A stretch of DNA of 64,000 nt, from NCBI GenBank assembly GCA_025351405.1, contig JANXVZ010000027.1, positions 21,275 through 85,274 on the forward strand. The letters are read 5' to 3'. Both the position numbers and the translations under genes were made by a program. The notes under the pieces were generated by a model, which was not told the DNA's origin, searched no databases, and worked only from the letters and a program-made list of their open reading frames with translations. Position 1 is the first letter of the stretch, and each line of letters starts with the position of its first letter. Shown piece after piece: positions 37,811-58,777 of this stretch. This stretch comes from Sphingomonadales bacterium. Its GTDB lineage: Bacteria > Pseudomonadota > Alphaproteobacteria > Sphingomonadales > Sphingomonadaceae.

Positions 37811-37839
37811 GCCGCCTGCCATTGCAAAGGCGCTGCACT

Positions 37840-39888
37840 ATGAAGTTCGGCCTGACAGCGTTCACTTGGGGGCTGATACTGGCCGGTTGCCCGGCGGTGG
37901 CGGCACAGCCGTTACAGCCGCGCGACCTGTTCGGGCTCAGCCTCGCCAGCGCGCCCGCCGTAAGGCCCGATGGCAGCCTTGTCGCCTATGTGCGGACAGC
38001 CAACGACGTCATGACCGACAGGGGCCGCAAGTCGATCTGGCTCGTCGACAGCCGCAGCGGGGCTACAACGGCGGTGGCCAGCGGCGAAGACACCGCGACC
38101 CAGCCGGCATGGTCGCCAGACGGCAGCCGGCTGGCCTTTGTCCAGACGGACGCGAAGGGCGCCTCGGTCATCAACGTCTACGACATTGCCGGCAAGACCG
38201 TGGTCGTTGCCGCCAAGATGGCGCGCAGCCCCGGCAACCTGTCCTGGTCGCCCGATGGGCATCGCCTCGCCTTCACCATGGCGGTGCCGCGACCCGACAC
38301 GGTGTTCGGGACGCCGCTGGCGCCGCCGGACGGTGCCAAATGGGCAGCCCCGTTGCAGGTGATCGACACGCTGATGTACCGTGATGACGGCATCGGCATG
38401 CGTCCGCCCGGCTTTACCCATGTCTTCGTCGTCGAGGCAGCGGGCGGCGTTCCAAAGCAGGTGACCAGCGGCGACTTCGACGATGACGGCCCGCTGTCAT
38501 GGACGCCCGACGGTGCGGCCATCGTCTTCATCGGCAAACGCAGTCCCGAGGCGCTGCGCGAACCTTTCCACGCCGGCATCTACCGCGTCGCCATCGCCGA
38601 TGGCGCGCTTGCCGAGCTTGCGACACCCGCCCAGCCACATGGCGACGCACAACTTTCGCCCAACGGTCGGCAGATCGCCTTCATCGGTCATGTCGACGCG
38701 CACCGGAGTTATGAAAACGCCCGCCTGTCGGTGATGGACAGCGACGGCAGCCATGTACGGACGCTGGCGGCGACACTGGATCGCAGCTTTGAACATCCGC
38801 GCTGGTCGGGCGACGGTCGCAGCATCTACGCGGCCTATGCCGACCATGGCATCACCAAGGTGGCGCGGATCGATATCGCGACCGGAAAGCTTAGCGATGT
38901 CGCCACCGGCCTCGCCGGCGAAGGCTTCGACCTGCCCTATAGCGGTGGCGATTTCGCCGTGGGACGCGACGGCACGCTGGCGTTCACACAGGGCGCCGCC
39001 GACCGTCCGGCCGACATCGCCATGGTGAAGGGTGGCAAGGTCACCCGGTTGACCAGGTTGAACGATGCCCTGCTCGGCCAGCGCACGCTCGGCACCGTCC
39101 AGCCGCTGGCGGTCAAGTCGAGTGTCGATGGTGCCGCCATCGATACCTGGCTGGTGCTGCCACCCGGCTTCGACCCGGCGCGGAAATATCCGTTGATCCT
39201 CGAGATCCATGGCGGTCCATTTGCCAGCTATGGCCCGACCTTTGCCAGCGATGGCCAGTTATATGCCGCTGCAGGCTATGTCGTCGTCTATGCCAACCCG
39301 CGCGGCTCGACATCCTATGGCGACAGCTTCGCCAACGGCATCGACAAGAGCTATCCCGGAACCGACTATGATGACTTGATGAGCGCCGTCGATGCAGCGA
39401 TTGCCAAGGGCTTTGTCGACAAGGATCGCTTGTATGTGACCGGCGGTTCAGGGGGCGGCGTGCTGACGACGTGGATCGTCGGCAAGACTCATCGCTTCCG
39501 TGCGGCGGTGGCGCAGAAGCCGGTGGTCAACTGGTCGAGCGAGATACTGACGTCGGATATCTATCCGTGGATGGGCAAATACTGGTTCGGCAAACAACCC
39601 TGGGAAGACCCCCAGGGTTACTGGGCACGGTCGCCGCTGTCGCTGGTGGGCAACGTCACCACGCCGACGATGGTGATCGTGGGCGGCGAAGATGTACGCA
39701 CGCCGGTGGCGGAATCGGAGCAATATTATGGTGCGCTGCAGCTGCGGGGTGTCCCCACCGCGCTGATCAAGGTGCCCGGCGCCTTCCATGACATGGCGCT
39801 GCGGCCAAGCCATGCGGCGGCAAAGGCCAATGCCGTGCTGGCATGGTTTGCACGCTACGGCGGAGCACCGACGACGGTCGCACAATGA
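37840..39888 (+). CDS. Exported S9 (prolyl oligopeptidase/DPP-like) peptidase
   Basis: PD40-like WSPDG propeller repeats, YPLILEIHGGP, NPRGSTSYG, nucleophile TGGSGGG, DVRTP and FHD. Confidence 0.93.
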   Translation: MKFGLTAFTWGLILAGCPAVAAQPLQPRDLFGLSLASAPAVRPDGSLVAYVRTANDVMTDRGRKSIWLVDSRSGATTAVASGEDTATQPAWSPDGSRLAFVQTDAKGASVINVYDIAGKTVVVAAKMARSPGNLSWSPDGHRLAFTMAVPRPDTVFGTPLAPPDGAKWAAPLQVIDTLMYRDDGIGMRPPGFTHVFVVEAAGGVPKQVTSGDFDDDGPLSWTPDGAAIVFIGKRSPEALREPFHAGIYRVAIADGALAELATPAQPHGDAQLSPNGRQIAFIGHVDAHRSYENARLSVMDSDGSHVRTLAATLDRSFEHPRWSGDGRSIYAAYADHGITKVARIDIATGKLSDVATGLAGEGFDLPYSGGDFAVGRDGTLAFTQGAADRPADIAMVKGGKVTRLTRLNDALLGQRTLGTVQPLAVKSSVDGAAIDTWLVLPPGFDPARKYPLILEIHGGPFASYGPTFASDGQLYAAAGYVVVYANPRGSTSYGDSFANGIDKSYPGTDYDDLMSAVDAAIAKGFVDKDRLYVTGGSGGGVLTTWIVGKTHRFRAAVAQKPVVNWSSEILTSDIYPWMGKYWFGKQPWEDPQGYWARSPLSLVGNVTTPTMVIVGGEDVRTPVAESEQYYGALQLRGVPTALIKVPGAFHDMALRPSHAAAKANAVLAWFARYGGAPTTVAQ

Positions 39889-44018: not shown

Positions 44019-46082
44019 ATGACGAGGAACTGGGCTTGGGCCGCGGTCGCGGCGTTGACGGTGTTTGGTGGCGGGATGGCCACGGCGCAGGAAACGGCTT
44101 CGCCGACCACGCTGACCACCGATCACTATTTCGACCTCGAAAAGATCGACGACGCGCAGATCTCGCCTGACAGCACGCAGGTCATCTATGTGCGGCAACA
44201 GGCCAATCGCATCGAGGACCGTTGGGACAGTGCGTTGTGGATCGTCAATGCCGATGGTTCGCACAACCGGTTGTTCGCCAAGGGCAGTTCCGCTCGCTGG
44301 TCGCCCGACGGCAAGCGGATTCTCTATCTGGCCGAAGGCGATGCCGGCAAGGCGCAGATCTTCGTGCGCTATGTCGACGTCGAGGGGCCGGCAACGCCGG
44401 TGACCCATGGCACCGAAGCCGTTGCCAACCCGCGCTGGGCCCCGGACGGGCGATCGATCGCCTTCACGATGTTCGTGCCGCAAAAGCCGAACTGGGCAAT
44501 CAGCATGCCGCCGGAACCCAAGGGGGCAAAATGGATGGCGGCCCCCCGGATCGTCGACAAACTCCACTACCGCTTCGACCGCACCGGCTTTGTCGAGGAC
44601 GGCGTCGATGCGCTGTTTGTCGTCGCTGCCGACGGCGGTGCCACGCGGCAAATCACGGACCAGGGCATAGCGCCGGGCGCCGGCGAATTCCGTGGACCAA
44701 TCGATTTTGGTTGGTCCCCGGACAGCAAGTCGATCGTTTTTGCCGGAATCCGCGATTTCAACGCCGATCTTGCCTATCAACATACGCAATTGCTGGTGAC
44801 AGAGGTGGCATCTGGGCGCGTTCGTGACCTGTTGCCGGTATCAGGCGACTGGAGCCGGCCGACAGTATCGCCCGATGGTCGCTGGATCGCCTTCACCGGC
44901 TACCCGAAATCCGAAAAAACCCATTCGGTCGCCGACCTTTATGTCATTCCGGCGGGCGGCGGTGCAATGCGCAAGATCAGCGGCGACCTCGATCGCGATC
45001 CGATCGGCCTCAAATGGGCGGCGGACAGTTCCGGGGTCTATTTCGATGTCGAGGACCATGGCAGCCGCAACGTGTTGTTTGCCGCGCTCAAAGGCGGTGT
45101 CCGCGTGCTGACACGGGGTGCACACATGCTGTCACTCGATTCCGTCAGTCGCGACCTGACCGCTGCCGGGACGCTGTCCGATACCGACCATCCGGCCGAA
45201 GTCGTGCGCTACAGCTTGCGCCGCGCCGGTGAACCGGCGCTGCTGACGCATGTCAACGCCGCCCTGATCGCCGGCAAGACGCTGGGCCATACCGAGGCCA
45301 TCGGCTGGCAGTCATCCGGGGGCACCAAGGTCGAGGGCTGGTACATCACGCCGCCAGGCTTCGACCCCGGCAAGAAATACCCGCTGATTCTGGAAATCCA
45401 CGGCGGACCCTATGCCAGCTACAACAGCGGCTTCAGCTATATGTGGCAGAATTTTGCGGCAAACGGCTATGTCGTGCTCTATCTCAATCCGCGTGGCAGC
45501 ACCGGCTATGGGCACGCGTTCTCCGACGGGATCGACCATGATTATCCCGGCCCCGATCTCGACGACCTGCTGTCCGGTGTCGATGCGATGGCCGCGAAGG
45601 GTTTCGTCGATACGGCCCGGCTGTATGTTTCTGGCTGCAGCGGCGGAGGCGTGCTGTCCAGCTGGGTGACGAGCCATTCGGATCGCTTTGCCGCGGCGGC
45701 AGTGCGCTGTCCGGTCACGGACTGGGTGAGCCTCGCCGGTCATACGGACGTTCCGCTGTTCACCTACAGCTTTTTCAAAAAGCCGTTCTGGGAAGATCCA
45801 TCCGATTGGCTGTCGCACTCCTCGCTCATGCACGTCGGCAAGGTGACGACACCGACCCTGCTCATGACCGGGGTGCTCGACCGTCGCACACCCATGCCGC
45901 AGACGGAGGAATATTATGCCGCGCTCAAGGTGCGCGGGGTCCCGGCAACGCTGTTGCAATTCGAGGGCGAGTTTCACGGCACAGGCTCGAAACCATCGAA
46001 TTTCATCCGGACGCAGCTTTACATGATGAGCTGGTTCAAGCGTTATTCGCGCGGCGCGGATGGAAAGGTGCGGGAAAACTGA
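44019..46082 (+). CDS. Exported S9 peptidase (second paralogue)
   Basis: WSPDG repeats, YPLILEIHGGP, NPRGSTGYG, SGCSGGG, DRRTP and EFHG. Confidence 0.93.
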   Translation: MTRNWAWAAVAALTVFGGGMATAQETASPTTLTTDHYFDLEKIDDAQISPDSTQVIYVRQQANRIEDRWDSALWIVNADGSHNRLFAKGSSARWSPDGKRILYLAEGDAGKAQIFVRYVDVEGPATPVTHGTEAVANPRWAPDGRSIAFTMFVPQKPNWAISMPPEPKGAKWMAAPRIVDKLHYRFDRTGFVEDGVDALFVVAADGGATRQITDQGIAPGAGEFRGPIDFGWSPDSKSIVFAGIRDFNADLAYQHTQLLVTEVASGRVRDLLPVSGDWSRPTVSPDGRWIAFTGYPKSEKTHSVADLYVIPAGGGAMRKISGDLDRDPIGLKWAADSSGVYFDVEDHGSRNVLFAALKGGVRVLTRGAHMLSLDSVSRDLTAAGTLSDTDHPAEVVRYSLRRAGEPALLTHVNAALIAGKTLGHTEAIGWQSSGGTKVEGWYITPPGFDPGKKYPLILEIHGGPYASYNSGFSYMWQNFAANGYVVLYLNPRGSTGYGHAFSDGIDHDYPGPDLDDLLSGVDAMAAKGFVDTARLYVSGCSGGGVLSSWVTSHSDRFAAAAVRCPVTDWVSLAGHTDVPLFTYSFFKKPFWEDPSDWLSHSSLMHVGKVTTPTLLMTGVLDRRTPMPQTEEYYAALKVRGVPATLLQFEGEFHGTGSKPSNFIRTQLYMMSWFKRYSRGADGKVREN

Positions 46083-46150: not shown

Positions 46151-48040
46151 TCATTTTGCCATCGGCAGGCTGACATAGCTCGCGTCGGGGCCTGCGATGA
46201 CTATCTTCTGGGTGGCCTTCACATAATCCGCCGGCTTGGCAAAAAAGATGTTGGGCACGAAGCTCTGCGGGTTGCGGTCGTACAATGGGAACCAGCTCGA
46301 CTGGACCTGCACCATGATCCGGTGGCCGGGGGCGAACACATGGTTGGCCGTCGGCAGCGCAAAGCTGTATTTCAGCGGCGTGTTCGCGGCCAACGGCCGT
46401 GCCTCGGCAAGGTTTTCGCGATAGCGGCCGCGAAAGATGTCCATGGCGATTGCCAGTTGGTAGCCGCCCATCGCCGGCTTCTCCGGCACCTCATCAGGAT
46501 CGACATCGATCAGCTTGACGACCCAGTCGCTGTCGGTGCCGCTGGTCGATGCGGTCAGATGGACCATCGGCGTTCCCGCGATCGTCACCGGTTCGGTCAG
46601 CACGGGGCCGGTAAAGGTCAGGACGTCGGGGCGCCCTGAAACCGCGCGCTGGTCGTCTGCCAGCCATGTCGGCCATGGGTTGCCGTCATAGCCCTGCGGG
46701 CGGATCGGGCGGGCTTCATAGGTCACCGGGCTGGCGGGATCGGAGACATACTCGGCCGTGGCATCCCCCGCCGCCGCTTCGAAACCCAATGTCATGCCCG
46801 GCTTCAGATACAGTCTTGTCGCGCCTTCGTCCTGCGACCAGCGCGACAGCTTTTGCCACTGGTTGGTGCCGCTTTGAAACGCCGTCACCGGCGCCACGTC
46901 CATCGGCGTGCCCTTCAGGTAATGCGCCAGGAAGGGCGCCAGCACGTCATGCCGCCATTGCTTGGCCGTGTCGGCGTCCCAGTCGATCGCGCCCAGGCTG
47001 CTGCCATTGTCGATGCCCTGGCCGTGGTGCCAGGGACCCATCGTCAGGAATACCATGTCGTTGCCGGCATCCTTGGGCTTCAGCGCGCGATACACCGCCA
47101 TCGCCCCATAAATGTCCTCCTGGTCCCACAGGCTGTGCACGAGCATTACCGGAACCTTGAGCGGCTGCCTGGCAAGCACGCGGTCCATCGCCTGTTCCTG
47201 CCAAAAGGCATCATAGGCGGGGTGTTGGGTAATCTTTTGATAAAAGCCGATCTGGTCGAGCCCGTGGCTGCTGGCCAGCGCACCGGCCGACCCGGCGCGC
47301 ATGTAAAGGTCGTACTGGTCGTAGACCGACGTGGTCCATTTCGACTTGTTGTCCCGCGTGGCGACCTGTTCCCAGATATAGGGCAGCCCGAATTGCCGGA
47401 ACGCGCCGTTGTGGAACCAGTCGTCGCCGCGCCAGCCGTCGACCATCGGGTTCATCGGCACGGAAACCTTGAGCGCCGGATGCGGATTGACCAGCGCCAT
47501 CAACGGGGTGAACCCGTCATAGCTGATGCCGATGATGCCCACCTTGCCATTCGATTCCGGCAGGTTCTTCACCAGCCAGTCGATCGTGTCATAGGTATCG
47601 GTCGCGTGATCGACCTTGGTCGGGTTCAGCGCCGTGCCGGCGAGCGGCCGGTTCATGACATAGCTCCCGCCCGAGCCGTATTTGCCGCGGACATCCTGGA
47701 CAACGCGGATATAACCGCCCGCGACAATCACATCGGCGGCATTGTCATACCCCTGCAGCACGCTGGCCAGTCGTCCGCTCTGGGCGTGCCCGGTCAGTTC
47801 CTCGGCATTATAGGGGGTGCGGGTCAGCAGGATGCCAGCATCCCTTGCGCCCTTGGGCACGAAGATGACGGTGTGGAGCTTTACCCCGTCACGCATCGGG
47901 ATTTCCACGATACGGCGGGAAAAATTGGCGTCCGGGTCGCCGGCGTCGTGGAGCTTGGCCGGACGCTCGTCATACTGCTGCGCCAAGGCCGGTGCCGCGA
48001 CGGCGGCGAGAGCGCCAGCGGCGAGAAGCGTGCGGATCAT
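46151..48040 (-). CDS. CocE/NonD family hydrolase (alpha-amino acid ester hydrolase-like)
   Basis: IPMRDGVKLHT, ILLTRTPY, QDVRGKYGS, nucleophile GISYDG, WDQED and WHHG. Signal peptide present. Confidence 0.92.
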   Translation of the reverse strand: MIRTLLAAGALAAVAAPALAQQYDERPAKLHDAGDPDANFSRRIVEIPMRDGVKLHTVIFVPKGARDAGILLTRTPYNAEELTGHAQSGRLASVLQGYDNAADVIVAGGYIRVVQDVRGKYGSGGSYVMNRPLAGTALNPTKVDHATDTYDTIDWLVKNLPESNGKVGIIGISYDGFTPLMALVNPHPALKVSVPMNPMVDGWRGDDWFHNGAFRQFGLPYIWEQVATRDNKSKWTTSVYDQYDLYMRAGSAGALASSHGLDQIGFYQKITQHPAYDAFWQEQAMDRVLARQPLKVPVMLVHSLWDQEDIYGAMAVYRALKPKDAGNDMVFLTMGPWHHGQGIDNGSSLGAIDWDADTAKQWRHDVLAPFLAHYLKGTPMDVAPVTAFQSGTNQWQKLSRWSQDEGATRLYLKPGMTLGFEAAAGDATAEYVSDPASPVTYEARPIRPQGYDGNPWPTWLADDQRAVSGRPDVLTFTGPVLTEPVTIAGTPMVHLTASTSGTDSDWVVKLIDVDPDEVPEKPAMGGYQLAIAMDIFRGRYRENLAEARPLAANTPLKYSFALPTANHVFAPGHRIMVQVQSSWFPLYDRNPQSFVPNIFFAKPADYVKATQKIVIAGPDASYVSLPMAK

Positions 48041-48255: not shown

Positions 48256-48528
48256 TCAGCGCTTGTCGTCGCCCGACCTTGTATCCCCGCCACCGGTACG
48301 GGTGTCACCGCCGCCCGATCGCGTATCGCCGCTGCCGGTGCGGGTGTCACCACCCCCGGAGCGGGTGCCGTCGCTGGTGACGGCGGGTTCGGCGGGCGGG
48401 GCTTCCGCCGCCGGGGCCACCGCTTGTTCCGAAGCCGTGGCGTCGGTCGGCGGGGCCGGGGCCTTTTGTTTGCCACACGCCGAAAGCGGCAGCGCTGCAA
48501 CGACGGCGATGGCAAGAATTGCACGCAT
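48256..48528 (-). CDS. Small lipoprotein (90 aa) with C-terminal [S/T]G[G/S]GDTR repeats
   Basis: AAAGGT RBS, lipobox LSAC, Pro/Ala linker, then a repeat tail. Confidence 0.75.
   Translation of the reverse strand: MRAILAIAVVAALPLSACGKQKAPAPPTDATASEQAVAPAAEAPPAEPAVTSDGTRSGGGDTRTGSGDTRSGGGDTRTGGGDTRSGDDKR
48259..48375 (-). repeat. 21-bp (7-aa) tandem coding repeat: four full units at 48277-48360 plus degenerate flanks
   Basis: Encodes SDGTR-SGGGDTR-TGSGDTR-SGGGDTR-TGGGDTR-SGDDKR, with synonymous codon differences between units. Confidence 0.9.
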
Positions 48529-48574
48529 TGTCGGACCTTTCATTGCGGCCCCCGGCCGTTCACGATTGTGAAAG

Positions 48575-50506
48575 CTATGCCAAACCCATCCGGCCTAGCA
48601 ACCGGTTATATCGGGCATCGTTCCGAAGTGGCGCGAACATCGGGTCGATGAGCGTCGAGGCCATGCCGCCATCGCGGATGTCATAGGCGCGTTCCAGCGC
48701 CGCAAAGGCATCCTCCGTGCGGCCCCATTGTGCCAGCACCTGGGCCTGCTGATAGCTGGCGTTGTCGCCGTGCAGCGTAACCAGTTCCGTCAATGCCGCT
48801 TCGGCTGCCGGCCGGTTGCCAAGCTTGTGGTCGACGATCGCCAGACCGGCCAGCCGCAATATCGGCAAAGGCTCGGCGGCAAAGGCGGTGCGGGCCGCCG
48901 AAGCATCGGCCAGCATCAACTGGGCAAAACCGATCTGGGAATGCGCAGAAGACAGCTTCGCGTTCATCGCCAGCGCCTGTTCTGCCCGCGCCACTGCACT
49001 CCGGTAATTGCCTGTGGCAAGTTCGATGGCGGAATCGGCACGAAAGGTGCGGGGATTGAGCGGGTCGAGCTGTTCGGCGTGGACGATCACCCGGCGCGCA
49101 TCCTCGCCGCGCCCCGCCTTGGCAGTAAAATAGGCGTACATCAGCAGGATATCGGCATCCCCCTGTCCCAGGGCAAAGGCACGGTCATACGCGGTGCGCG
49201 AGCCCCTGAAGTCGAGAAAGCCGTTGAGGGTGGCATAGCCCAGCGCAAGATGTGCCGCGGCGAGGTCGGGTGCCAGCGCCACCGCCCGCTGTGCGGCAGC
49301 AACCGCCGCGCCGTAGGTATCGACGATGCGGTCTGCCTTGGCGTACAGGCTGGCGATCCCGGCCAGGGAGCGCGAGCGCGCCGCATGGGCGGCGGCAAAA
49401 CCGGGGTCGAGCGATATGGCTTCGTCGAAGCGCGCCAGCGCGGCGCGATCCGCGCTCTCGCCGGCGTCGCCGTTGAACAACGCCCGCCCGCGCAGGAAAG
49501 CGTCATAGGCGGCAACGACAGTGGTTCCGCCGGGGGCCTTGCCGCCCGCCGTGGTGACATGACTGAGCAGCGCGCTGGCGACGGTGACCGCAATCTCGCT
49601 CTGCAATGCGAAAATGTCATCGAGCTTGCGGTCGAAACTTTGCGACCAGCTGGCAAAGCCGGCCGCCACATCGGTCAACGTCACATCGATGCGGACAAGG
49701 TTGCCGGATTTTCGCACATTGCCGTCGAGCAGATAGCCGACGCCGAGCTTGCGGGCGATCTCCCGTGCATCTTCCTTGTGATCGCGAAACTCGTTCGACG
49801 ATGTCGGCGCGGCGACCTTCAGCCCGGCGACGCGGACGAGGGCCGCACGAACCTCCTCGCAAAGACCCTCGGAGAAATAGTCCTGGCTCCTGTCGCCGCT
49901 GAGATTGGCAAAGGGCAGGACCGCCAGCGCATTCCTGACAACACCTTGCCGCCACGGCTTGATGGCGACCATGGCTGCGGCGGCTGCGAGCACGGCGACG
50001 CCGCCACCCCCGGCAATCAGCGCGCGGCGGGAAACCCAGGTTCGCGCCACTGGGGCGGAATATTCGAGGTCGACGGTGTCTGCAGCGGCTGCGATGCCGC
50101 GCTCAAGGCTGGCGAACTCGGCAGCGTCGGCTCGCCTGTTCCAGCGCGACAGGTCGATCGTGTGATATTGCCGAAAGCCCAGGGGCGGTTCCGCGCCATC
50201 GATGGTGACGGGCACCAGCCGCTTGCGATCGCGGGCATGGGCAGCCTCGTCGCGCACCCAGTCCGATGCGACCGAATTTGCGGACCAGACGACGATCACG
50301 GCTTCGGCTGCGGCAAGCTTGCCCTCGATGGTCCTGGCAAAGGCCGCGCCGCCCGCGATCAATGCGTCCCACCACAGCGGGTAGCCGGCAACGATGAGCG
50401 CATCGACCAGCGGACGCACCTTTTCACGGTCAGCGCGAGCATAGCTGACGAACAGGCCCGGTTTGACAGCCACCATCGCATCCTGGTCGTTGGCCGTGAC
50501 CTTCAC
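48575..50506 (-). CDS. TIR domain - TM - TolB-N-like - TPR protein
   Basis: TIR motifs LFVSYARAD, WWD, VIVVWSANSVASDWVRDEA (catalytic-type Glu); hydrophobic helix ALIAGGGGVAVLAAAAAMVAI; LAVLPFANLSGD...YFSEG; TPR helices. Alternative ATG at 50476. Confidence 0.9.
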   Translation of the reverse strand: MKVTANDQDAMVAVKPGLFVSYARADREKVRPLVDALIVAGYPLWWDALIAGGAAFARTIEGKLAAAEAVIVVWSANSVASDWVRDEAAHARDRKRLVPVTIDGAEPPLGFRQYHTIDLSRWNRRADAAEFASLERGIAAAADTVDLEYSAPVARTWVSRRALIAGGGGVAVLAAAAAMVAIKPWRQGVVRNALAVLPFANLSGDRSQDYFSEGLCEEVRAALVRVAGLKVAAPTSSNEFRDHKEDAREIARKLGVGYLLDGNVRKSGNLVRIDVTLTDVAAGFASWSQSFDRKLDDIFALQSEIAVTVASALLSHVTTAGGKAPGGTTVVAAYDAFLRGRALFNGDAGESADRAALARFDEAISLDPGFAAAHAARSRSLAGIASLYAKADRIVDTYGAAVAAAQRAVALAPDLAAAHLALGYATLNGFLDFRGSRTAYDRAFALGQGDADILLMYAYFTAKAGRGEDARRVIVHAEQLDPLNPRTFRADSAIELATGNYRSAVARAEQALAMNAKLSSAHSQIGFAQLMLADASAARTAFAAEPLPILRLAGLAIVDHKLGNRPAAEAALTELVTLHGDNASYQQAQVLAQWGRTEDAFAALERAYDIRDGGMASTLIDPMFAPLRNDARYNRLLGRMGLA

Positions 50507-50536: not shown

Positions 50537-51586
50537 CTAGTGTGTCGTTACGGGGTTGGAAAGCTTTGCTCCGGCATCCCTGATCCAGTCCCGATAGGCC
50601 GATACATTGGTGTAGATGGCCGGTGTATCGGGCAGCGCGCAGCCGCGCCCCCACGACACCAGGCCAACCAGCACCCGCTCGCTGCCCTGCGCTCTCGTCA
50701 TCGGCCCGCCGCTGTCGCCGTTGCAACTGTCGACCCCGGGGCGGTCGGACACAGCGCATACCGTCTGTGCGACAGCACGGTCGCGGTAGTTGGGCAGCGC
50801 CGCGCAGGCCGGGTCCTGCGGGGTCTGGTTGATCTGCATCAGGATCGGCGACATGTGGTTGAGCGTCTTGCCGTCGCGCGCCATCTCGCCGCCGCCTGAA
50901 TCGCGCGCCAGCGTCCGGCCCCAGCCGGTGATGCGCAGGCGGTCACCCTGGCCTAGCGGCACATCACCGGGGCGCGAGCCAAGGATGCGGATCCGCGCCT
51001 GTTCCCGCCGGAAACGCCGCGCCGGCGCGTTGTCCGCGGCGATCCGCAGGATGGCAATATCGTTCAGCGGCGGATCACCGCGCACATAGCCGGGATGTTG
51101 CTGCCATGCGACAATGCGAAAGGTCACGCCGTTGTTCTTCAGGTTCTGGGTCCCCATCCGGACGCCGCGCGCCGTTCCAAAGCCCGCGACATTGTCCAGA
51201 CAATGGGCAGCCGTGAGCACGAGATCGCCGCCGATATATACGCCACCGCAGCGGTGGGCGATTTCCCATTTTTCCTTCTCTGCAAGATGGAAGCATCCCT
51301 TGCCGGGCTTGCAGTCGTCGGCGATCTCCTGCGGCGTGTAGACATGGGTCGAATAGATCTGCACTTGCCAGGGGGCGCTGCCTGCGGGCGCCGCCGAACC
51401 GCCGACGATGCGGCCTTCTCCCTCCGGGCTTTCGGGCGGAGCGGGGGTGGCAGCGGGAGTGGCAGGGGGCGCCTCCGGGGCCGCTGCCCCTGCAGGCTCT
51501 GCTGCTGGCTGCGCAGCCGCTGCCGGCGCCAGGCAGGCAAGCGCCGACCAGGCCAGCGTCACCGAGGCAAGGACCAGATATTTCAT
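50537..51586 (-). CDS. Exported trypsin-like serine protease (S1) zymogen
   Basis: Signal peptide, Pro/Ala propeptide, R|IVGG, HRCGG, LTAAHC, NDIAIL and DSCNGDSGGP; GLVSWGRGC. Confidence 0.93.
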   Translation of the reverse strand: MKYLVLASVTLAWSALACLAPAAAAQPAAEPAGAAAPEAPPATPAATPAPPESPEGEGRIVGGSAAPAGSAPWQVQIYSTHVYTPQEIADDCKPGKGCFHLAEKEKWEIAHRCGGVYIGGDLVLTAAHCLDNVAGFGTARGVRMGTQNLKNNGVTFRIVAWQQHPGYVRGDPPLNDIAILRIAADNAPARRFRREQARIRILGSRPGDVPLGQGDRLRITGWGRTLARDSGGGEMARDGKTLNHMSPILMQINQTPQDPACAALPNYRDRAVAQTVCAVSDRPGVDSCNGDSGGPMTRAQGSERVLVGLVSWGRGCALPDTPAIYTNVSAYRDWIRDAGAKLSNPVTTH

Positions 51587-53601
51587 GGCGGTGACCCCTT
51601 TCGCATGACCAGTGCGTCTTCGATCGTGACGGTCCAGTCGCCCAGCGTCGGCAGGCCGCCATCGCGGGCGCCGCTGCCGCCATTGGTGCAGACGCCGCGC
51701 GCTTCGGCCTCGGTATCGCACGGCCCCGACATGCGGCGGCGCATCGGTGGCTGCTCCAGGGCTGCCACATTGATCGGCGCGTCGGTCGCCAGAATCACAA
51801 ATCGGTATAGCCCGGTGGTGTTGAGCGCAAAGGGGCCGGGCCGTTGCGCGGCACCCCCGGGCATCGGCGGATCCTTGCCATGCGCGGTCGGAATCAACTG
51901 GGTGATCCCGTACCGATTGTCGATGACCAGCACCGAGATATAGCGCGCCGCGGCGCCTTTGTTGGTCACAGTGAGGACCAGCGGGGTATCGACGGGCACA
52001 CGGCGTTGTTTGTCGACAGGTTCGGGGCAGGTCTGGAGCGGATGATCGAGCCGGGTCGAAAGGCACAGGGCAAGCCCGGCCTGTTCAGCGCTGCCGGACG
52101 CCAGCGAGACCAGGCGCTGGGCATTGTATGCCGGCAGCAGCGCCATCCGCAGCTGTTCGGCAAGATCCGGCTCGGTGACAGGGCCAATTGTGGCGAGGCC
52201 GTCGCCATCACCCGAATTCAGGTAGACCGGAACATCATCCGCGGTGCCACGACGCAGCAGATTGAACTGGGCCGAGGACCCGGCAGTGACGACGTCGACA
52301 AAGCCCAGCGAGGCGAGCGCCTTTCTGAGCCGGCTCTGGTCCGGTGGGGTTGCTTCGGATACCGAGGCTTTTAGCCGGTCGTTGCCGAAGGCATGGGCGG
52401 TTTCACGCCCAACCAGTATCGGCGGGAGCGGGCGTTCCGGTTGGCTGTCGAGGCTCAACCGGGCCTGCCCGTCGGTGATCACGGTCACTGTCGCCAGCGC
52501 CAGCGGCTTGGCTGCATCGTTCAGCGCGTCGGCCTGGTTCGCGAACAGGGCGAATTTCGATCCGACGCTCATCCCCAGCAGCCGCCCGGCGGCGAGGGCG
52601 ATGCCGTCGGTCCCGGCTTCGGCATCGAACAAGGCGACGCCGATCGCCTCCCCGCCGAAACGCGCCTGGAGTGCGCCTTCGGCCTGCGGATGCTGGCGCT
52701 TGTGGCCGCCCTGTTCCACCCTCAGCCGCACGGCGGTGGCGATATCCCCAAAGGTTGCGTCCGGCCGGGCGACAAGCGCCTGGGCAAAGGCAGTGGTGAA
52801 GACGCCATGGACACTGGCGCCCGCGACGACCTCTCGGGCTTCCTCGTCGTCGCGGGAGGCGCCGAAATGAACGCGGTAGCCGCCGCCGGGACCGACAGCC
52901 GCCAGATCCGGGCGGAAATCGGCGTGATGCCCGATCGAGACGCCCTTGACGCCGCGATTGAAGCCTTCGCCGGCCTCGCCGCGCGTAGCGGTGCCTGAGT
53001 TGCACGAATCGAAGATGGTCACGACATTGACGCCGCGGGCGCTGGCGACATCGATGATGCGGCGGATCTCGCGATCGACGATGTCGGCCGCGGCGGTGGC
53101 ATCCGGGTTGCGCGCATCGGTCGGCAGGATGGTGCTGTCCACCCCGGAGGCCTGGTCGAAAACCTGGTCGTCGGCGATGGTCGAGCCGTGCCCTGCGAAA
53201 TAGAAGATCACCGTGTCACGCGGTGCCGAAGCGGCGATCAGGCTGGTCAGTGACGCGAGGATCTGCTTGCGCGTGGCGCAGCCGTCGGTGAGCGTGATCG
53301 AAAGCCCATTCGACGTCGCGCACTTGCCCGGCACCGCCGTATCGAACGACAGGCGATAGGCAATCGCCAGGGCCTGCTTGATTGCCTGGGCGTCCGACAC
53401 GGCCCCCCGCAAATCGCCGAAATCCGCATCGGGATAGGCAGGTCGCCGTGAAAACTGGTATTTGTCGATCCCGACGAACAGCCCGCGGATTGCCGGAGCG
53501 GCGTGCCCGTTCTGTGCGGCCGACGCGGCCGGGGAGGTCTGTGCGGCCGGCGCGGCGGCCGATGCCAGCAAAAGCGGCAGCGTGAGCCACAGCCGCTTCA
53601 C
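51583..53601 (-). CDS. Exported caspase-family (C14) protease with C-terminal DUF4384-like domain
   Basis: Signal peptide, GLFVGIDKY, DLRGAVSDA, IFYFAGHGS (His), IFDSCNSG (Cys) and HGVFTTAF. GTGA and ATGA overlaps with its neighbours. Confidence 0.9.
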   Translation of the reverse strand: MKRLWLTLPLLLASAAAPAAQTSPAASAAQNGHAAPAIRGLFVGIDKYQFSRRPAYPDADFGDLRGAVSDAQAIKQALAIAYRLSFDTAVPGKCATSNGLSITLTDGCATRKQILASLTSLIAASAPRDTVIFYFAGHGSTIADDQVFDQASGVDSTILPTDARNPDATAAADIVDREIRRIIDVASARGVNVVTIFDSCNSGTATRGEAGEGFNRGVKGVSIGHHADFRPDLAAVGPGGGYRVHFGASRDDEEAREVVAGASVHGVFTTAFAQALVARPDATFGDIATAVRLRVEQGGHKRQHPQAEGALQARFGGEAIGVALFDAEAGTDGIALAAGRLLGMSVGSKFALFANQADALNDAAKPLALATVTVITDGQARLSLDSQPERPLPPILVGRETAHAFGNDRLKASVSEATPPDQSRLRKALASLGFVDVVTAGSSAQFNLLRRGTADDVPVYLNSGDGDGLATIGPVTEPDLAEQLRMALLPAYNAQRLVSLASGSAEQAGLALCLSTRLDHPLQTCPEPVDKQRRVPVDTPLVLTVTNKGAAARYISVLVIDNRYGITQLIPTAHGKDPPMPGGAAQRPGPFALNTTGLYRFVILATDAPINVAALEQPPMRRRMSGPCDTEAEARGVCTNGGSGARDGGLPTLGDWTVTIEDALVMRKGSPP

Positions 53602-56600
53602 GGGCGCAGCCGTCGCAACACAAGCTGGCTGGCGGAGCCCGTGAAGTCGAACAGCGACGGTTCCTGAACCGGGCGCCGCGCCGCGGTGCCATCGAGGAAA
53701 TCGACACCGCGCGCACCGCTCGGCGCGCCGGGGCGGCGCGCAATCCGGCTGTCCTGGCTCAGCATCGGCAGGCGATGCACGGCGTAACGCAGCCATTCGT
53801 CGAGTGTGATCGCGCCGTCGCCATTTTCATCGGCCATCCCGCCATTGGCAGTGATGCCTTCATCGGCAAGCGCATAGGTGAGCAACCCTTGCCCCAGGTT
53901 GGCGGATTCGAGCGCGATGTCGTCGGCCTGGGTCGCGGCCAGGATCCGCATCCGCTTGTCAAATGCCAGCTGGCCCAGGCCGCCGTCCCCCATCGGGCCA
54001 GGACGGAAACCGCCTGCATCGACGCTGGCGGCCGAATGACAGGCATCGATGATCATCGCCATCTCGCCGGCATCGATGCGTCGCAGAAAGCGCGACATCT
54101 CAAGCGTCGAGACAAACGACGCAACATCGGGCGCCAGGGTCGCGTCGGGCCAGCGTGCGTCGGTGGGCAGCAGGTAGAAATTGCCTTGCCGATCGGCCCA
54201 GCCATGGCCCGAAAATGAAATCAGCACGACATCGTCCGGCCCGGCGGCATCAAGCGTCGACGCATCGATGCCCCGCGCCTGCAGCCGCGCCAGTGCTTCA
54301 CGGCGGGGGCTTCCGCCAAGGATGCCGAAGACATCGGCCAGCGCCGCCCGTGTTATGTCCGGGCTGCCGGGCTTCCCGGTACCCGCCAGCACCAGCAGGT
54401 GGACATTTTCGGCATCGGGCAGCGTGGCCAGCCGCGCACCGATCAGCGCTGCATCGTCCGCGGCGAAATTGAGCCGGAGCCGGGGTTCGGCATAACCGTC
54501 GATGCCGATGGCCACGACAAAGATGCGCCGCCTTGACGTGGCGACGGACGGCGGCCGGTAGAGTTGCCGGGCGGTTTCGCTCTTAACCCGGTCCTCGTTG
54601 AAGGCATAGGCGGTGAATTCGACCGGTGCGCCGCTGGTGGAGACCCTGACCGGCAGGCGAATTCGCGCCACCCCATCCTTGCCGACAACCACCCGGTTTT
54701 CCTGCCGCCAGCGCTTCAGGTCGAACTGCAGCGCATCGGGAGCGCCGCCCGGCGACTGGGCAACGAGGCTGCCGTTGCGGAACAACCGCAGGTCGTACCC
54801 GTCGCTGTGCAACTTGCCGTTGGGCGCATCGGGACGCGATCCGGGGCGCAGTTCGAGACCGACAAGCACATTGCCGGGGGTCGCAGCCTTGGTGATGCCG
54901 GTAATCCGCACCGTCGGCAGCACCCGGTTGATATCGGCCAGCCGGGCGACGGGGCGAAACGCGCTGGCGCAGCTGTCGGTCAGCGTACAGGCCATCACGC
55001 GGGGTCCGAGCCGGGGCTCGAAGAAATTGCGCATGAAGGTCTGCGGCCCCAGCGACTGCAGCGGCGCGTCGGACACCACCCAGCGAAAGTCGCGGGTGTC
55101 GGCACCCAGGTCGGTATCATAGCGACCATCGGGGGCCATGGTGAAAAAGCTGCGATCATTCACGAGGTAGGTTCGCAACACCTCCGGGCTGGCAAAAGCG
55201 TCGTCGCGGCGGGGACGCCACAGGACGATGCCGTCGGTGTTGGTCACCACCCAGCGCAATGGACTGCCCGGGATCGCGCCTTCCGCCACGACATTCTTGA
55301 ACAACAGCCGTGATTCGCGCGCTCCGCCGGCTATGCTGACGGCACTGATCGGTTGATCGGCGATTTCGGCAAACCGTTCGTACCAGCTCTTGCCATCGCT
55401 GCTGACCGTTGCCCGGGCCAACGCCTCCACCGGCGGCGCATTTCCTTCAAGCGCGGTGAAAGGCGCGGCGGCCATCTCCCAGCGGTAAAACCTTCCGTCG
55501 CGGCTCAGCCCGACGGACTTGCTGTCCGCTGCAAATTCGATCACCGGATAGGTGCTCCCGTCCGGCAGCGCGGTCTCGGCGATCACGGTTCCGTCTTCTG
55601 TATCGATGGCGCGCACGAGATGGCTGCTTGTCGTCACGATCAGGCGCTTGCCGTCCGGCGTTGCCGCAAGCGTTTCGATAAAGGTGCCGCTCGCGTCGGC
55701 AGGCCCCAACGCCTGCCAGCCGGTTGCCGGATCATAGCGCTGCAGGCCTTGTTCCCCGCGGCCGTGCAAGGCGGTGCAGTTGCCGAGCCCGGCGCCGATG
55801 ATGACGCCGTTGCCAAGCGCCTGTGTGTAGCAGCGGAAGGGGATCAAATCCCCCGCCGCCTTGCCGGTGGACGCCGCGATCACCCGCGACACACCGGGCT
55901 TGCCCGCCTGGGCGGAATTGCGGTCCCCGCCGCTGTTGTCGCCCGGCAAAAGCACCTTCTCGTCATCCAGCCAGGTGACCGTCGAATGGAACCCCTCGAC
56001 CGTGACCCGGGATACGACGGCCCAGACGGCAAGATCGAACACCATGATACCGGACCGGCGTTGTTGCCCCGCGGTGGCGGGCGTCTGGGCGACGTCGAAA
56101 ATCAGCGCCATCCGCTTTCCATCGGGGGACAGTGCAGCGCCAAAGGCCATGGTCGGCTCGGGCTTGTCGAGCTTGCGCACCGGCCTGCCCCGCGCGTCCT
56201 CGATGACGAAGGGATAGTCGCCGACATCGATGCGAAGCTGGCCGTTGTGCGAAGCGATGACCCTGCCTTGCAATCCCGTCCCGATGCACGGCGCCATGGG
56301 CTCCCCTGTCTGGACCTGCCAGTCGCCGCCGCCGAGCGGCGGCAGGCGCATCGTCAGCGCGGTGCAAAAGCTGCTGTCGGTATCGCGAATGTTGGCCTTG
56401 ACCGTCAGGCCGGAGTTGTGATCGACCCTCGCGTCCCACGCCTCGATATTGGACTTCGGGTCAAAGGCGGGAAACGGGACAAGGTTGACGATATCGCCCG
56501 TCGCTGCATCCCACACCGTGACGCTGCGCACGAGGTTGTCGATGCCGATCACGAACCTATCATCCCGGCTCCAGGCGAAAACGGTCTGTGTCGGGATGGT

Positions 56601-56777
56601 GCGTTGCAGCACAAGCTTTGGGTAGGCCGCGTCACTGGGGGCAATCCGCTTGCCGACGTTTGCCGCGTCGCCCGCCGTGGCGGCCCTGGCGCATGGCGAG
56701 CAACCCAGGGTGAAGGCGATCACCAGCATGTTCGGGATGTTGTGCGCCCAATATGCCCTGCGGCGGATGCTGGCCAT
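53598..56777 (-). CDS. Beta-propeller (WD40/PD40-like) - caspase-family (C14) fusion protein, probable signal peptide
   Basis: Propeller repeats FAWSRDDR, ALSPDGKR, ATPDGKR and VSSDGK; FVVAIGIDGY; ISFSGHG (His); IIDACHSA (Cys); GLLTYAL; ADENGDGAITLDEW. Confidence 0.88.
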   Translation of the reverse strand: MASIRRRAYWAHNIPNMLVIAFTLGCSPCARAATAGDAANVGKRIAPSDAAYPKLVLQRTIPTQTVFAWSRDDRFVIGIDNLVRSVTVWDAATGDIVNLVPFPAFDPKSNIEAWDARVDHNSGLTVKANIRDTDSSFCTALTMRLPPLGGGDWQVQTGEPMAPCIGTGLQGRVIASHNGQLRIDVGDYPFVIEDARGRPVRKLDKPEPTMAFGAALSPDGKRMALIFDVAQTPATAGQQRRSGIMVFDLAVWAVVSRVTVEGFHSTVTWLDDEKVLLPGDNSGGDRNSAQAGKPGVSRVIAASTGKAAGDLIPFRCYTQALGNGVIIGAGLGNCTALHGRGEQGLQRYDPATGWQALGPADASGTFIETLAATPDGKRLIVTTSSHLVRAIDTEDGTVIAETALPDGSTYPVIEFAADSKSVGLSRDGRFYRWEMAAAPFTALEGNAPPVEALARATVSSDGKSWYERFAEIADQPISAVSIAGGARESRLLFKNVVAEGAIPGSPLRWVVTNTDGIVLWRPRRDDAFASPEVLRTYLVNDRSFFTMAPDGRYDTDLGADTRDFRWVVSDAPLQSLGPQTFMRNFFEPRLGPRVMACTLTDSCASAFRPVARLADINRVLPTVRITGITKAATPGNVLVGLELRPGSRPDAPNGKLHSDGYDLRLFRNGSLVAQSPGGAPDALQFDLKRWRQENRVVVGKDGVARIRLPVRVSTSGAPVEFTAYAFNEDRVKSETARQLYRPPSVATSRRRIFVVAIGIDGYAEPRLRLNFAADDAALIGARLATLPDAENVHLLVLAGTGKPGSPDITRAALADVFGILGGSPRREALARLQARGIDASTLDAAGPDDVVLISFSGHGWADRQGNFYLLPTDARWPDATLAPDVASFVSTLEMSRFLRRIDAGEMAMIIDACHSAASVDAGGFRPGPMGDGGLGQLAFDKRMRILAATQADDIALESANLGQGLLTYALADEGITANGGMADENGDGAITLDEWLRYAVHRLPMLSQDSRIARRPGAPSGARGVDFLDGTAARRPVQEPSLFDFTGSASQLVLRRLRP

Positions 56778-57052
56778 CACCGGACCCTTTCTGCCCTGAA
56801 GGTGCGGCTGAACCGACAGGGTGTCAATCAGCGCCGGTGGCCGCTGGCGGCGGCTTTCCATGCCGCCTCGATCCGGGCTCATGCGTCGTCAGCCGGTGCG
56901 GTGCGTCGCAAGCCCCGGTATGCCAACCGGGGAGGACGGTCTGCACCGCTATCGGCAGGATTTTGCGCTGGCGCTGCTGAACATGCTATCGCGCTTTGCC
57001 GACGGGCGGGATCGAAACGGGGGGATCGCGTAGTGCATCTGGTGGGGCATGA

Positions 57053-58777
57053 ATGACCGCTGAGCCATTGACCGTGGGAGTCACTGGCCATCGCCCGGCC
57101 CGGTTGGTCGGTGTCGACACTGCCGTTCTCGCAGCGCAGATCTGCGCGACGCTCGAGGCTTTTGCAGACGCTGCCGGCCATGATCGCAAATTCCGGCTGG
57201 TGAGCAGCCTCGCCGAAGGGGCCGACAGCATCGCCGCCGGGGTTGCACTGCAGATGGGTTGGCAACTCGACGTCACGCTGCCGTTCGATCGCGTTCGCAA
57301 TGCCCAGGACTTTCCGGATTCGGATGCGCTTGCAGCGCTCGATGCCTTACTCCTTCGTGCCGATTCCGTGTTCGAACTGTGCAGCGGTTGCCTCGAGGCC
57401 GAGCCGGCCAGCACGGCTTATGAACGCGCCGGCCGGGTCATGCTCGCGCAGTGCGATGTGTTGCTGGCCGTGTGGGATGGCAAGCCTGCCCAGGGGCGCG
57501 GCGGCGCCGCACAAATCGTCGCCGAGGCGGTGCTGCAGGGCGTGCCCGTCTTGCACGTCGCCCTGGCGGACGGTGCGCGGCCCTTGTTGTTATGGGACCG
57601 GCTGGACGAACATGACGTCGGGCAACACACGCTGGATACAATTCCCCGCGCGGGCCTTGAGCAGTTGCCGCGGCTGGTGGCGCATCTGCTTGGCGATGCC
57701 GACAGCGGTGCCTTGCCGCGCCACTACCGTGGCCGCCGACGCCTGACCGTCGCGGTGGCCTATGCAATGCTGATGGCGGTCATGGCCGTCCGGAGTTTGC
57801 GCGGCGCCGACTTTGTCAAAGCCGACCCGGATATCGCGCGGGACGCATTGCTGGCCGGATGTTCGGCGACCCGGCAAGCCACGCCGTTCGGCGAGCGGCT
57901 GACCCGCGTGCTCGCTCCAGGCTTTGGCTCGGCCGACGCCAGCGCCACCGATTTCTCGCGCCGTTTCCGCAGCGCCTATGTCGCCAACTTCGTCCTGGCG
58001 GCGCTCGCCGTCGTCACCGCCCTTGTCGGGCTGGCGCTGCCCAAGTCGGCCAAGCCGGGGCTGATCGTCATCGAACTCGCGATCGTCGCGACGATCCTGA
58101 TCGTCACGCGCATGGGCAACAAATCGGGCTGGCACCGGAGCTGGCTGAGCAGCCGCCAGGTTGCCGAGCAATTGCGCTGCCTGGCGATCACGGCGCAGCT
58201 TGGCGATCTGCGGCTGCGGGCCAATACCCATCCAACCACCCGCAACGTGGCGCGGCAGCTCGGGCTGCCAAATGCCATCGCCGATGCGCCCTATCTGGCG
58301 GCAATTCAGGCAGATCTGGGCCGATTGATCGATTCGCAGATCGACTATCTGGAGCGCGACGCCAGCGTTATGCATCGGCTGGAGCATCGCCTGCACCGGC
58401 TCGGCGGCTTGCTCTTCCTCGCCACGGCCACGATCTGCCTTCTCTACCTGGCTGCCGAGGTGGCCATCATGGCCAATCCGGCGTGGCACCATATCGTCGA
58501 GCCGGTGCTGATCTGGGGGACCATATTGAGCGCGGGGTTCCCTGCGATCGGGGCAGCCATCTACGGTATTCGCATGCAGGGCGACTTCAGCGGCTCGGGT
58601 GAACGAAACGCCGCCCTTGCCGCCGAACTTCGCCGGGTTCGCCAGCTTACGCAGAAGACACCCCAAACCTATGATACGCTTGCCCGGCACGCGAAGATCG
58701 TCGCGGACCTGATGGTCGCCGATCTGACCGATTGGTTCCGGGCGTACAAGGCGCGGCCGCTCGCTCTGCCCGGTTGA
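57053..58777 (+). CDS. SLOG (YspA/DprA-LOG-like) domain fused to two SLATT/DUF4231-like two-TM modules
   Basis: VGVTGHR, SSLAEGAD, YERAG and DVLLAVWDG...GRGG...VPVLHV in the SLOG domain; two hydrophobic hairpins followed by W...R..AEQLR and QIDY...GIRMQGDF motifs. Confidence 0.78.
   Translation: MTAEPLTVGVTGHRPARLVGVDTAVLAAQICATLEAFADAAGHDRKFRLVSSLAEGADSIAAGVALQMGWQLDVTLPFDRVRNAQDFPDSDALAALDALLLRADSVFELCSGCLEAEPASTAYERAGRVMLAQCDVLLAVWDGKPAQGRGGAAQIVAEAVLQGVPVLHVALADGARPLLLWDRLDEHDVGQHTLDTIPRAGLEQLPRLVAHLLGDADSGALPRHYRGRRRLTVAVAYAMLMAVMAVRSLRGADFVKADPDIARDALLAGCSATRQATPFGERLTRVLAPGFGSADASATDFSRRFRSAYVANFVLAALAVVTALVGLALPKSAKPGLIVIELAIVATILIVTRMGNKSGWHRSWLSSRQVAEQLRCLAITAQLGDLRLRANTHPTTRNVARQLGLPNAIADAPYLAAIQADLGRLIDSQIDYLERDASVMHRLEHRLHRLGGLLFLATATICLLYLAAEVAIMANPAWHHIVEPVLIWGTILSAGFPAIGAAIYGIRMQGDFSGSGERNAALAAELRRVRQLTQKTPQTYDTLARHAKIVADLMVADLTDWFRAYKARPLALPG

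Follow-up and report, generated by a model that had tools for sequence, protein, structure and literature searches.

A small lipoprotein with arginine-terminated repeats, linked to a trypsin-like protease and a TIR-TPR receptor in Sphingomonadales

Introduction

In the 64,000-nucleotide stretch of Sphingomonadales DNA analysed here (contig JANXVZ010000027.1; the whole stretch is called the window below), a small lipoprotein gene on the reverse strand encodes a tail of short peptides, each closed by an Arg, and shares its surroundings with genes for a TIR-TPR receptor, a trypsin-like protease and caspase-like proteins. What does such a tail do, and for which partner? The original prediction, made from the window alone, likened the protein to a prohormone that would be cut by the neighbouring proteases into several copies of a heptapeptide ligand, possibly for the TPR domain. 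A comparison of syntenic loci from related genomes points to an answer with two parts. The lipoprotein may be a dedicated partner in an envelope-spanning module that also comprises the TIR-TPR receptor, the S1A protease and a putative SLOG-SLATT protein, a claim that the available sequences leave about evenly balanced. Within that module, the tail may be a cognate substrate or a product-like ligand of the protease that the module encodes, and proteolysis in the periplasm would thereby be coupled to the TIR receptor; here, too, the chances of being right and wrong appear roughly equal. Two observations carry this reading: the small gene accompanies the protease gene, and the tail changes with the residue at the base of the protease S1 pocket.

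A lipoprotein with an arginine-terminated tail

The small gene and its parts read as follows.

48256..48543, (-): small lipoprotein gene, an open reading frame (ORF) with the translation MKGPTMRAILAIAVVAALPLSACGKQKAPAPPTDATASEQAVAPAAEAPPAEPAVTSDGTRSGGGDTRTGSGDTRSGGGDTRTGGGDTRSGDDKR and its stop codon at 48256-48258
48475..48528, (-): signal peptide and lipobox L-S-A-C, MRAILAIAVVAALPLSA followed by the lipobox Cys, whose codon is 48475-48477
48376..48474, (-): Pro/Ala/Glu-rich disordered linker of 33 residues, GKQKAPAPPTDATASEQAVAPAAEAPPAEPAVT, read from the sequence
48259..48375, (-): tail SDGTR, SGGGDTR, TGSGDTR, SGGGDTR, TGGGDTR, SGDDKR, from the translation and Tandem Repeats Finder

Translation yields 95 residues from the ATG at 48543 and 90 residues from the ATG at 48528. 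The latter had been taken as the start; it is an in-frame ATG (MRAIL...), but the second of two, and the first is also possible. Both candidates lead to an identical mature lipoprotein. The sequence fits a predicted lipoprotein: a basic n-region, a hydrophobic h-region and a lipobox of the form [LVI][ASTVI][GAS]C make up the bacterial lipoprotein pattern, and the same signal pattern, M-[RK]-K...L-[AS]-[AG]-C, is present in 103 syntenic homologues. The +2 residue is Gly in the window protein and Asp in just 2 of the 103, which suggests sorting to the outer membrane by the E. coli rule, a rule that may not hold in sphingomonads. The only Cys is the one predicted to be lipid-modified, and the composition is that of a disordered protein. 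The ORF is a real one, predicted to encode an exported, lipid-anchored, intrinsically disordered protein.

The tail, 39 residues long, consists of exactly the six Arg-ended units originally described, four heptads and two shorter units, and the stop codon immediately follows the final Arg. At 48270-48376, Tandem Repeats Finder detects arrays of period 21 and period 42 whose copies match at only 69-81%, and the Arg residues that close the six units are encoded by four different codons (CGC, CGC, CGA, CGT, AGG, CGC). Pairwise codon differences among the four heptads comprise 28 synonymous and 7 non-synonymous changes; the repeat is therefore old and conserved as a peptide rather than a product of recent slippage, as had been proposed. 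Several near-identical peptide copies behind a signal peptide are a prohormone-type feature, and the window protein has it. The RTX calcium-binding nonapeptide GGxGxDxUx was considered and ruled out, because the units are 7 residues long (5-13 in homologues) and lack any hydrophobic residue. Pfam and NCBIfam scans of the lipoprotein return no family match; DUF4245, LppK and PG1828 score far under their cut-offs and were disregarded.

Conserved linkage to receptor and protease

A sequence search with the 95-residue lipoprotein against 5.8 billion proteins finds no homologue, and the same kind of search in 61 related genomes returns two real matches among many look-alikes that share a signal peptide or Ala/Pro-rich composition. 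Both real matches lie directly downstream of a TIR-TPR orthologue, and their repeats differ from those of the window: GANDDRT in five copies and GNTDRGNRGNDDRED in two. With sequence search nearly blank, homologues were sought by synteny, using the TIR-TPR gene as the anchor. An alignment query for related loci returned 493, of which 80 were kept, where an earlier single-sequence query had found none; altogether 180 flanking regions of 6-9 kb were read, giving 175 non-redundant loci with a TIR-TPR gene in which a transmembrane segment (TM) joins the two domains.

A gene for a small acidic protein lies immediately downstream, on the same strand, in 134 of the 175. Its presence follows that of the protease. 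Among the 118 loci with a trypsin in the flank, the small gene is found in 113 (85 lipoproteins, 28 small proteins without a signal peptide; none found in 5), as compared with 21 of the 57 loci without one (15 and 6, respectively; none found in 36), although "no trypsin" sometimes reflects only the flank limit, e.g., in genome G022 the trypsin gene is 9.1 kb upstream. Distant TIR-TPR paralogues without trypsin also lack the small gene. The linkage on which the original prediction depended is thus borne out for both the receptor and the trypsin.

The mature homologues have a median length of 66 residues, 71% of which are Ala, Glu, Asp, Thr, Gly or Pro; aromatic residues (Phe, Tyr) are absent and Leu and Ile very rare, a composition that identifies them as predicted disordered tethers. 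Putative SLOG-SLATT homologues occur in the flanks of 71 of the 175 loci and caspases in 22. Gene content across the loci thus places TIR-TPR, small protein and trypsin (with SLOG-SLATT as an addition) in the conserved core. Caspases, present in so few loci, are an optional upstream layer and not the main partner of the tail; for this reason they were dropped as its chief partner, and the original prediction changes in this respect.

The tail follows the S1 pocket of the protease

The residue at position 189, six residues before the catalytic Ser, lies at the base of the S1 pocket, and it could be read together with the tail in 113 loci. The catalytic triad, His57, Asp102 and Ser195, is kept in all 57 aligned proteases; the tails sort by pocket class. 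Where the pocket has Asp189 (65 loci), the motif [DE]x?[RK] is found within the last 20 residues of 63 tails, compared with 0 of 12 Gln189 and 0 of 9 Phe189 loci, and the very last residue is Arg or Lys in 50 of the 65 against 4 of the 48 others. The nine Phe189 loci (with Ser226) bear GS[TN]DQ or NTDH units, and all nine tails end in D[QH], an ending met once in the 104 loci elsewhere. All 12 Gln189 loci (Ser/Thr226) have NP[IV]xP and lack a [DE]x?[RK] site, a combination seen in 4 of the 101 remaining loci. Finally, G[DE][KQR]V is found in 7 of 10 Ser189 loci, those of Steroidobacteraceae, and in 1 of 103 elsewhere.

At least two Arg or Lys in the last 30 residues separate the Asp189 loci (61 with, 4 without) from the rest (6 with, 42 without) at a raw Fisher probability of 7.5e-20 over the 113 loci, a value that is inflated by kinship, as both traits are held in common by related genomes. 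The match is striking and coherent in itself: each of three pocket classes is paired with a tail class of its own, and the last residue of the tail agrees as well. Statistically it amounts to a strong lead, not proof. The conservation of Arg, on which the original prediction depended, takes a conditional form: Arg or Lys is kept with Asp189, whereas Gln or His replaces it with Phe189, and an Arg-free NP[IV]xP accompanies Gln189. Such keeping or replacement of Arg according to the S1 residue is what a protease-substrate relation predicts. The pocket of the window trypsin has Asp189, which would account for the Arg at the end of each tail unit.

Diversity and distribution of the tails

Many homologues have a single motif at the C-terminus, e.g., ...DEDGNPIDR, ...NGNPIGGR or ...EGTGNPIGPG..., and tandem repetition is therefore not essential. 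An automatic count finds at least two tandem units within the last 30 residues of 85 of the 134 tails, a number that includes some Ala/Glu-rich low-complexity runs. The commonest unit length is six residues (TGPDER, GNTGDR, SSGDNR, TGGDTR, GNPDNR, TGGDDK), next to units of five (GSTDQ, GSDDR, GNADR), seven (the window and GANDDRT), twelve (TGPQEQTGVVER) and thirteen. The nearest relatives keep a GDTR core in other unit lengths and copy numbers: TGDETR in six copies (L143), TGGDTR in four (L145), TNGDTR in five (L148), and a further version in L144. It appears that a short motif at the C-terminus, G-N-P-x-D-x-R or G-N-P-I in type, has undergone many independent amplifications, and such amplification into units of 5, 6, 7, 12 and 13 residues across lineages argues for selection on copy number or valency. 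One tail, encoded beside an Asp189 protease in a Novosphingobium metagenome-assembled genome (MAG; L206), has three GGNPDTH units ending in His and a last unit, GGNPETR, ending in Arg; by its sequence it reads as an intermediate between the Arg and the His/Gln tail classes.

The hosts are Sphingomonas, Novosphingobium, Sphingomicrobium, Polymorphobacter, Allosphingosinicella and Parasphingorhabdus, together with Steroidobacteraceae (Gammaproteobacteria) and one MAG labelled Hyphomicrobiaceae. The presence of the module in two classes suggests horizontal transfer. The gammaproteobacterial copies (L168, L182, L183, L190, L200, L207, L211 and L212, from Steroidobacteraceae and unclassified Gammaproteobacteria MAGs) have TIR-TPR proteins about 50% identical to that of the window. 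Their Ser189 proteases are extended far at the N-terminus, and their lipoproteins bear a motif of their own, [QH]-[ST]-[SG]-G-D-[KQ]-V-x-P.

The surrounding genes

Five co-oriented genes form the block in the window, encoding a caspase-domain protein, a C14 protease, the S1A trypsin, the TIR-TM-TPR receptor and the lipoprotein; a putative effector gene diverges from it.

48575..50506, (-): TIR-TM-TPR receptor, Pfam TIR_2 at 2.5e-22 plus TPR matches
50537..51586, (-): secreted S1A trypsin-like protease, Pfam Trypsin at 2.3e-35
51583..53601, (-): exported C14 (caspase-like) protease, Pfam Peptidase_C14 at 3.6e-14 and PADLOC caspase at 2.7e-16
53598..56882, (-): large exported protein, its N-terminal part originally read as a propeller, its C-terminal domain caspase-like (about residues 792-1038), PADLOC caspase at 2.9e-12
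57053..58777, (+), divergent: putative SLOG-like/SLATT-like membrane protein, the presumed effector, with a weak SLATT_1 match at 2.8e-4, under the cut-off

The lipoprotein gene had been placed directly downstream of the trypsin and two C14 genes. It does belong to the same co-oriented block, but its immediate upstream neighbour is the receptor gene, with a gap of 31 nucleotides to the ATG at 48543. The receptor begins with a cytoplasmic TIR domain, followed by one Gly/Ala-rich TM (about residues 161-185) and a periplasmic part (about residues 190-643) in which an alpha/beta domain precedes a TPR superhelix. In its TIR motif SDWVRDE, W83, V84, D86 and E87 are invariant in sets of 12 and 38 sequences, and Glu87 is the catalytic Glu; a TM lies between TIR and TPR in every locus where the periplasmic PF-x-NLS motif could be located. 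An AlphaFold2 model (mean predicted local distance difference test score 83) has the same parts, with low confidence at the TM and linker and a long, confidently modelled TPR superhelix. For the periplasmic part of this model, Foldseek returns generic TPR superhelices and the periplasmic domain of CadC (3ly8; TM-score 0.65 normalised to the target, root-mean-square deviation 4.2 A), matches that say nothing specific on peptide binding.

The trypsin has a signal peptide, a zymogen site EGEGR/IVGG (window 51400-51420; the slash marks the cut), the triad His57/Asp102/Ser195 and the motif DSCNGDSGGP, which by alignment of the pocket residues places Asp189 at the base of S1; its closest solved structures are animal trypsins, kallikrein and Vibrio VesC. 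The C14 protease probably starts at the GTG at 53601, which overlaps the upstream stop codon and opens a signal-like sequence, KRLWLTLPLLLASAAAPAAQ. The large protein upstream of it matches NCBIfam caspase_w_EACC1 at 5.4e-9, under that model's cut-off, and has no Pfam match at 0.01. Further peptidase genes adjoin the module: S9-type prolyl-oligopeptidase/dipeptidyl-peptidase-like exported proteins at 37822-39888 and 44019-46082, and an S15 X-Pro dipeptidyl peptidase downstream at 46151-48040. Nothing corresponding to the S15 gene is found close to the module in the loci of the first 60 relatives. The clustering of S9 and S15 peptidases beside the module is probably coincidental.

In caspase-linked loci, the small protein is a lipoprotein in every case, and 19 of the 21 trypsins have an acidic-Gly-Arg/IVGG zymogen site; of the 88 in loci without caspases, 4 do, kinship being ignored in this comparison. 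The activation peptide EGEGR resembles the tail units (GGDTR): acidic, Gly, then Arg. The pattern fits a caspase-to-trypsin activation step in the caspase-bearing subset, to which the window belongs.

A proposed pathway

Taken together, the gene order and the motifs would accommodate the following sequence of events. Pro-trypsin would be cut at EGEGR/IVGG by the caspase-like proteases or by trypsin itself. The active trypsin would then bind the tail or cut it after each DTR, and every cut would free a heptapeptide and leave a lipoprotein again ending in ...DTR-COOH. This change in the tail would be read in the periplasm by the TPR domain of the receptor, whose gene is adjacent, switching the cytoplasmic TIR NADase, whose nucleotide product may act on the putative SLOG-SLATT protein. 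The effect could run in either direction, through an agonist peptide or through the loss of a tethered inhibitor, in which case the intact tail would hold back the protease or the receptor. Of the original prediction, the protease-substrate part has substantial comparative support, drawn from the genomes, and the peptide-ligand part is a hypothesis.

A bolder version would make this a bacterial pathway of the Toll/Spaetzle or periplasmic Rap-Phr kind: a multi-copy pro-peptide lipoprotein cut by a protease, read by a TPR-TIR NADase and answered by a SLOG-SLATT pore, with pocket and pro-peptide co-evolving. Such a pathway is rather doubtful; in it, the protease would end a caspase-to-trypsin cascade in some lineages and the TPR domain would read either the peptides or the new C-terminus.

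Several observations weigh against a tail made for its protease. Changes between Asp and non-Asp at the base of S1 number merely 8-9 on the TIR-TPR tree; independent pairs are concordant in 5-6 cases and discordant in 0-1, for a median sign-test p of 0.06 (range 0.016-0.69); and the Gln and Phe classes have essentially one origin each. The Ser189 proteases of Steroidobacteraceae are paired with G-D-K-V tails that contain Lys, and S1 specificity itself is read from one aligned position, 189, with 216 and 226 as context. Another difficulty comes from the 34 of 134 small proteins that have no signal peptide, because a peptide that stays in the cytoplasm is not expected to come into contact with a protease of the periplasm: 28 of them are encoded beside a signal-bearing Asp189 trypsin, and these 28 end in D-x-R repeats. 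Lastly, five genomes have Arg-containing tails and no trypsin homologue anywhere at E <= 1e-10; four of the five have Arg-ended repeats and the fifth has a lipoprotein, so the repeat tail can persist without the protease.

The signal-less proteins have features of their own. Those of four trypsin-free genomes (G280, G200, G636 and G433; loci L047, L052, L109 and L115) start with MAK or MAD and carry GNGDR, GNADR or SSGDTR repeats. Another subclass (L155, L160, L165, L169, L170, L184, L193, L194, L210, L216 and L217) starts with M-(T)-[IV][IVT]GGKP[VI]-x-[DE], like the mature N-terminus IVGGxPA of S1A proteases, and, conversely, the trypsins beside it, whose genes are convergent, lack exactly that segment, their signal peptide being followed directly by A-x-x-G-A-P-W-Q. 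This may be an activation segment split off to act in trans, though the two proteins would sit in different compartments. The idea that a signal-less protein is a frameshifted C-terminal fusion of the TPR protein was rejected, as an in-frame stop separates the genes in many loci. Signal-less forms, the IVGGKPV subclass and the trypsin-free genomes together suggest either a tail partner that does not depend on trypsin, most simply TIR-TPR, or differing export routes.

Alternative explanations

A receptor-only account would make the tail a constitutive tethered ligand of the TPR domain, with the protease acting elsewhere and the association between S1 and tail left to shared ancestry. Extended peptides and C-terminal peptides are common ligands of TPR domains, and among the Foldseek matches of the receptor are the Tom71-Hsp70 tail and PEX5-PTS1 complexes; the small gene always abuts TIR-TPR, even where the trypsin is several kb off or absent (21 loci, five genomes), and the test corrected for phylogeny is not significant. 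Such an account is unlikely, nonetheless, for it leaves aside that the small gene tracks the trypsin (113/118 against 21/57), that a separate tail motif goes with each of three S1 classes, with hardly an exception, and that the C-terminal residue itself fits S1, Arg or Lys with Asp189 and Gln or His with Phe189. The contact between protease and tail could also have the opposite sign: as a tethered pseudo-substrate or decoy, the tail would occupy the protease, possibly like a product through its C-terminal Arg, or compete with the Arg/IVGG site, and so set a threshold against accidental firing rather than produce a signal. Tails that stop right after the S1-matching residue (50/65 Asp189 loci with Arg or Lys, 9/9 Phe189 loci with D[QH]), units that resemble the zymogen site, and the same C-terminus that each cut would restore are all in keeping with a decoy, whereas several Asp189 loci cap the last unit with Asp or Asn (TGPDED, TGPDEN, GPDDN). 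A decoy is improbable to much the same degree as the receptor-only account, yet it overlaps with the favoured reading, in which the tail is a substrate or ligand: the two posit the same contact, the comparative data are compatible with both, and the frequent stop after the S1-matching residue is compatible with a pro-ligand as well as with a decoy.

Two simpler possibilities would give the tail no partner. A generic disordered lipoprotein, serving as a spacer, cation binder or envelope filler with neutral low-complexity repeats, would match the composition, the failure of every family model and the fast divergence of the tails even inside one genus, but it is hard to reconcile with synteny kept over more than 100 species and two classes, with purifying selection on the window repeats as a peptide and with motif classes tied to the protease pocket; it is quite improbable. 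A chance open frame in G+C-rich DNA, where many spurious ORFs overlap on both strands, is scarcely credible, given a canonical lipoprotein signal, 134 syntenic counterparts that share position, strand and architecture and differ in DNA, and repeat variation skewed to synonymous changes. The reading preferred here is still the one in which the tail is matched to its own protease and read by the receptor.

Significance and comparison with known systems

The literature search found no paper describing a module of TIR-TM-TPR, lipoprotein and trypsin, and no family model or defence-system model searched describes the lipoprotein or the module; in the window, PADLOC reports domain-level TIR and caspase matches only and no defence system. 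The catalogue of tails, the match between S1 and tail and the pattern of caspases with zymogen sites are new. The module, so far undescribed, lends itself to direct testing: three natural specificity classes (Asp189 with Arg/Lys, Phe189 with D-Q/H and Gln189 with NP[IV]xP) can be compared crosswise with synthetic peptides, an approach that is simple and inexpensive. Sequence search does not see the small protein family, which is probably under-annotated, and a catalogue built on synteny is therefore useful per se.

The likely output of the module has parallels in Thoeris defence. To our knowledge, all characterised bacterial TIR systems sense intracellular events. If the proposed pathway is true, extracytoplasmic proteolysis would be wired to a TIR enzyme via a small protein tuned to its own protease. 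Thoeris type VII combines TIR with a SLATT effector and signals through cyclic ADP-ribose, and two candidates of the untyped 'SLOG and 4TM' group gave no defence when tested in E. coli (bioRxiv 10.64898/2025.12.03.692087). That study makes no mention of a periplasmic domain, a protease or a lipoprotein, and the words trypsin and lipoprotein are absent from it. Like these systems, the module would pair a TIR enzyme with a putative SLATT/SLOG membrane protein as the likely nucleotide-gated effector; unlike it, the Thoeris systems described use cytoplasmic sensors.

Other systems resemble parts of the module, but the module lacks one or more of the features that define each of them. In the Rap-Phr/RNPP systems of Firmicutes, a TPR receptor gene is followed by a small secreted pro-peptide gene. 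Both arrangements have a small exported disordered precursor encoded directly downstream of the TPR receptor, and in both the C-terminal oligopeptide is the informative part, processed in Rap-Phr by secreted serine proteases. By contrast, the TPR domain of the module is periplasmic, not cytoplasmic, and fused through a TM to TIR rather than to a phosphatase or helix-turn-helix output, so re-import would not be needed; the precursor is a lipoprotein whose motif is often tandem, and the module brings an S1A protease of its own. The sequences are not homologous, the module hosts are Proteobacteria, and the relation is one of functional analogy, not membership. Yeast alpha-factor and FMRFamide-type precursors consist of tandem near-identical peptides, each ending at a basic processing site, and the window protein likewise has a signal peptide and then tandem near-identical short peptides ending in a basic residue. 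It differs from them in being a lipoprotein from a bacterium; its sites are monobasic, its units are rich in Gly and Asp and have no hydrophobic pharmacophore residues, and many homologues are single-copy.

Within the bacterial envelope, NlpI-Prc and LbcA-CtpA are circuits of TPR protein, protease and lipoprotein in which the lipoprotein itself is the TPR adaptor. TPR proteins, lipoproteins and regulated periplasmic proteolysis, the last as proposed here, are common to both cases; in the module, however, disorder marks the lipoprotein partner, and it is the TIR receptor that carries the TPR domain. The predicted periplasmic part of that receptor, alpha/beta plus helical, superposes on 3ly8 and thereby recalls a CadC-type sensor.

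The widest parallel is with animals. In Drosophila, pro-Spaetzle is processed by a cascade of serine proteases into a ligand for Toll, a receptor with a TIR domain. The module, too, has secreted proteases that end in a trypsin-fold enzyme with an Arg/IVGG zymogen site, a small secreted pro-protein in which Arg would be the cleavage site, and a receptor that crosses the membrane once and has its TIR domain in the cytoplasm. The differences are as plain: the ectodomain is alpha/beta plus TPR rather than leucine-rich repeats, the candidate ligand is a disordered repeat peptide and not a cystine-knot dimer, the upstream proteases are caspase-like instead of clip-domain enzymes, and the bacterial TIR domain, in which the catalytic Glu is retained, would be an NADase that supplies the putative SLOG-SLATT protein, not an adaptor scaffold. 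The resemblance would be convergent at most. If the proposed pathway is true, it would run parallel in outline to Toll signalling in animals and would give Thoeris-like immunity, or the signalling of envelope damage, a new input logic.

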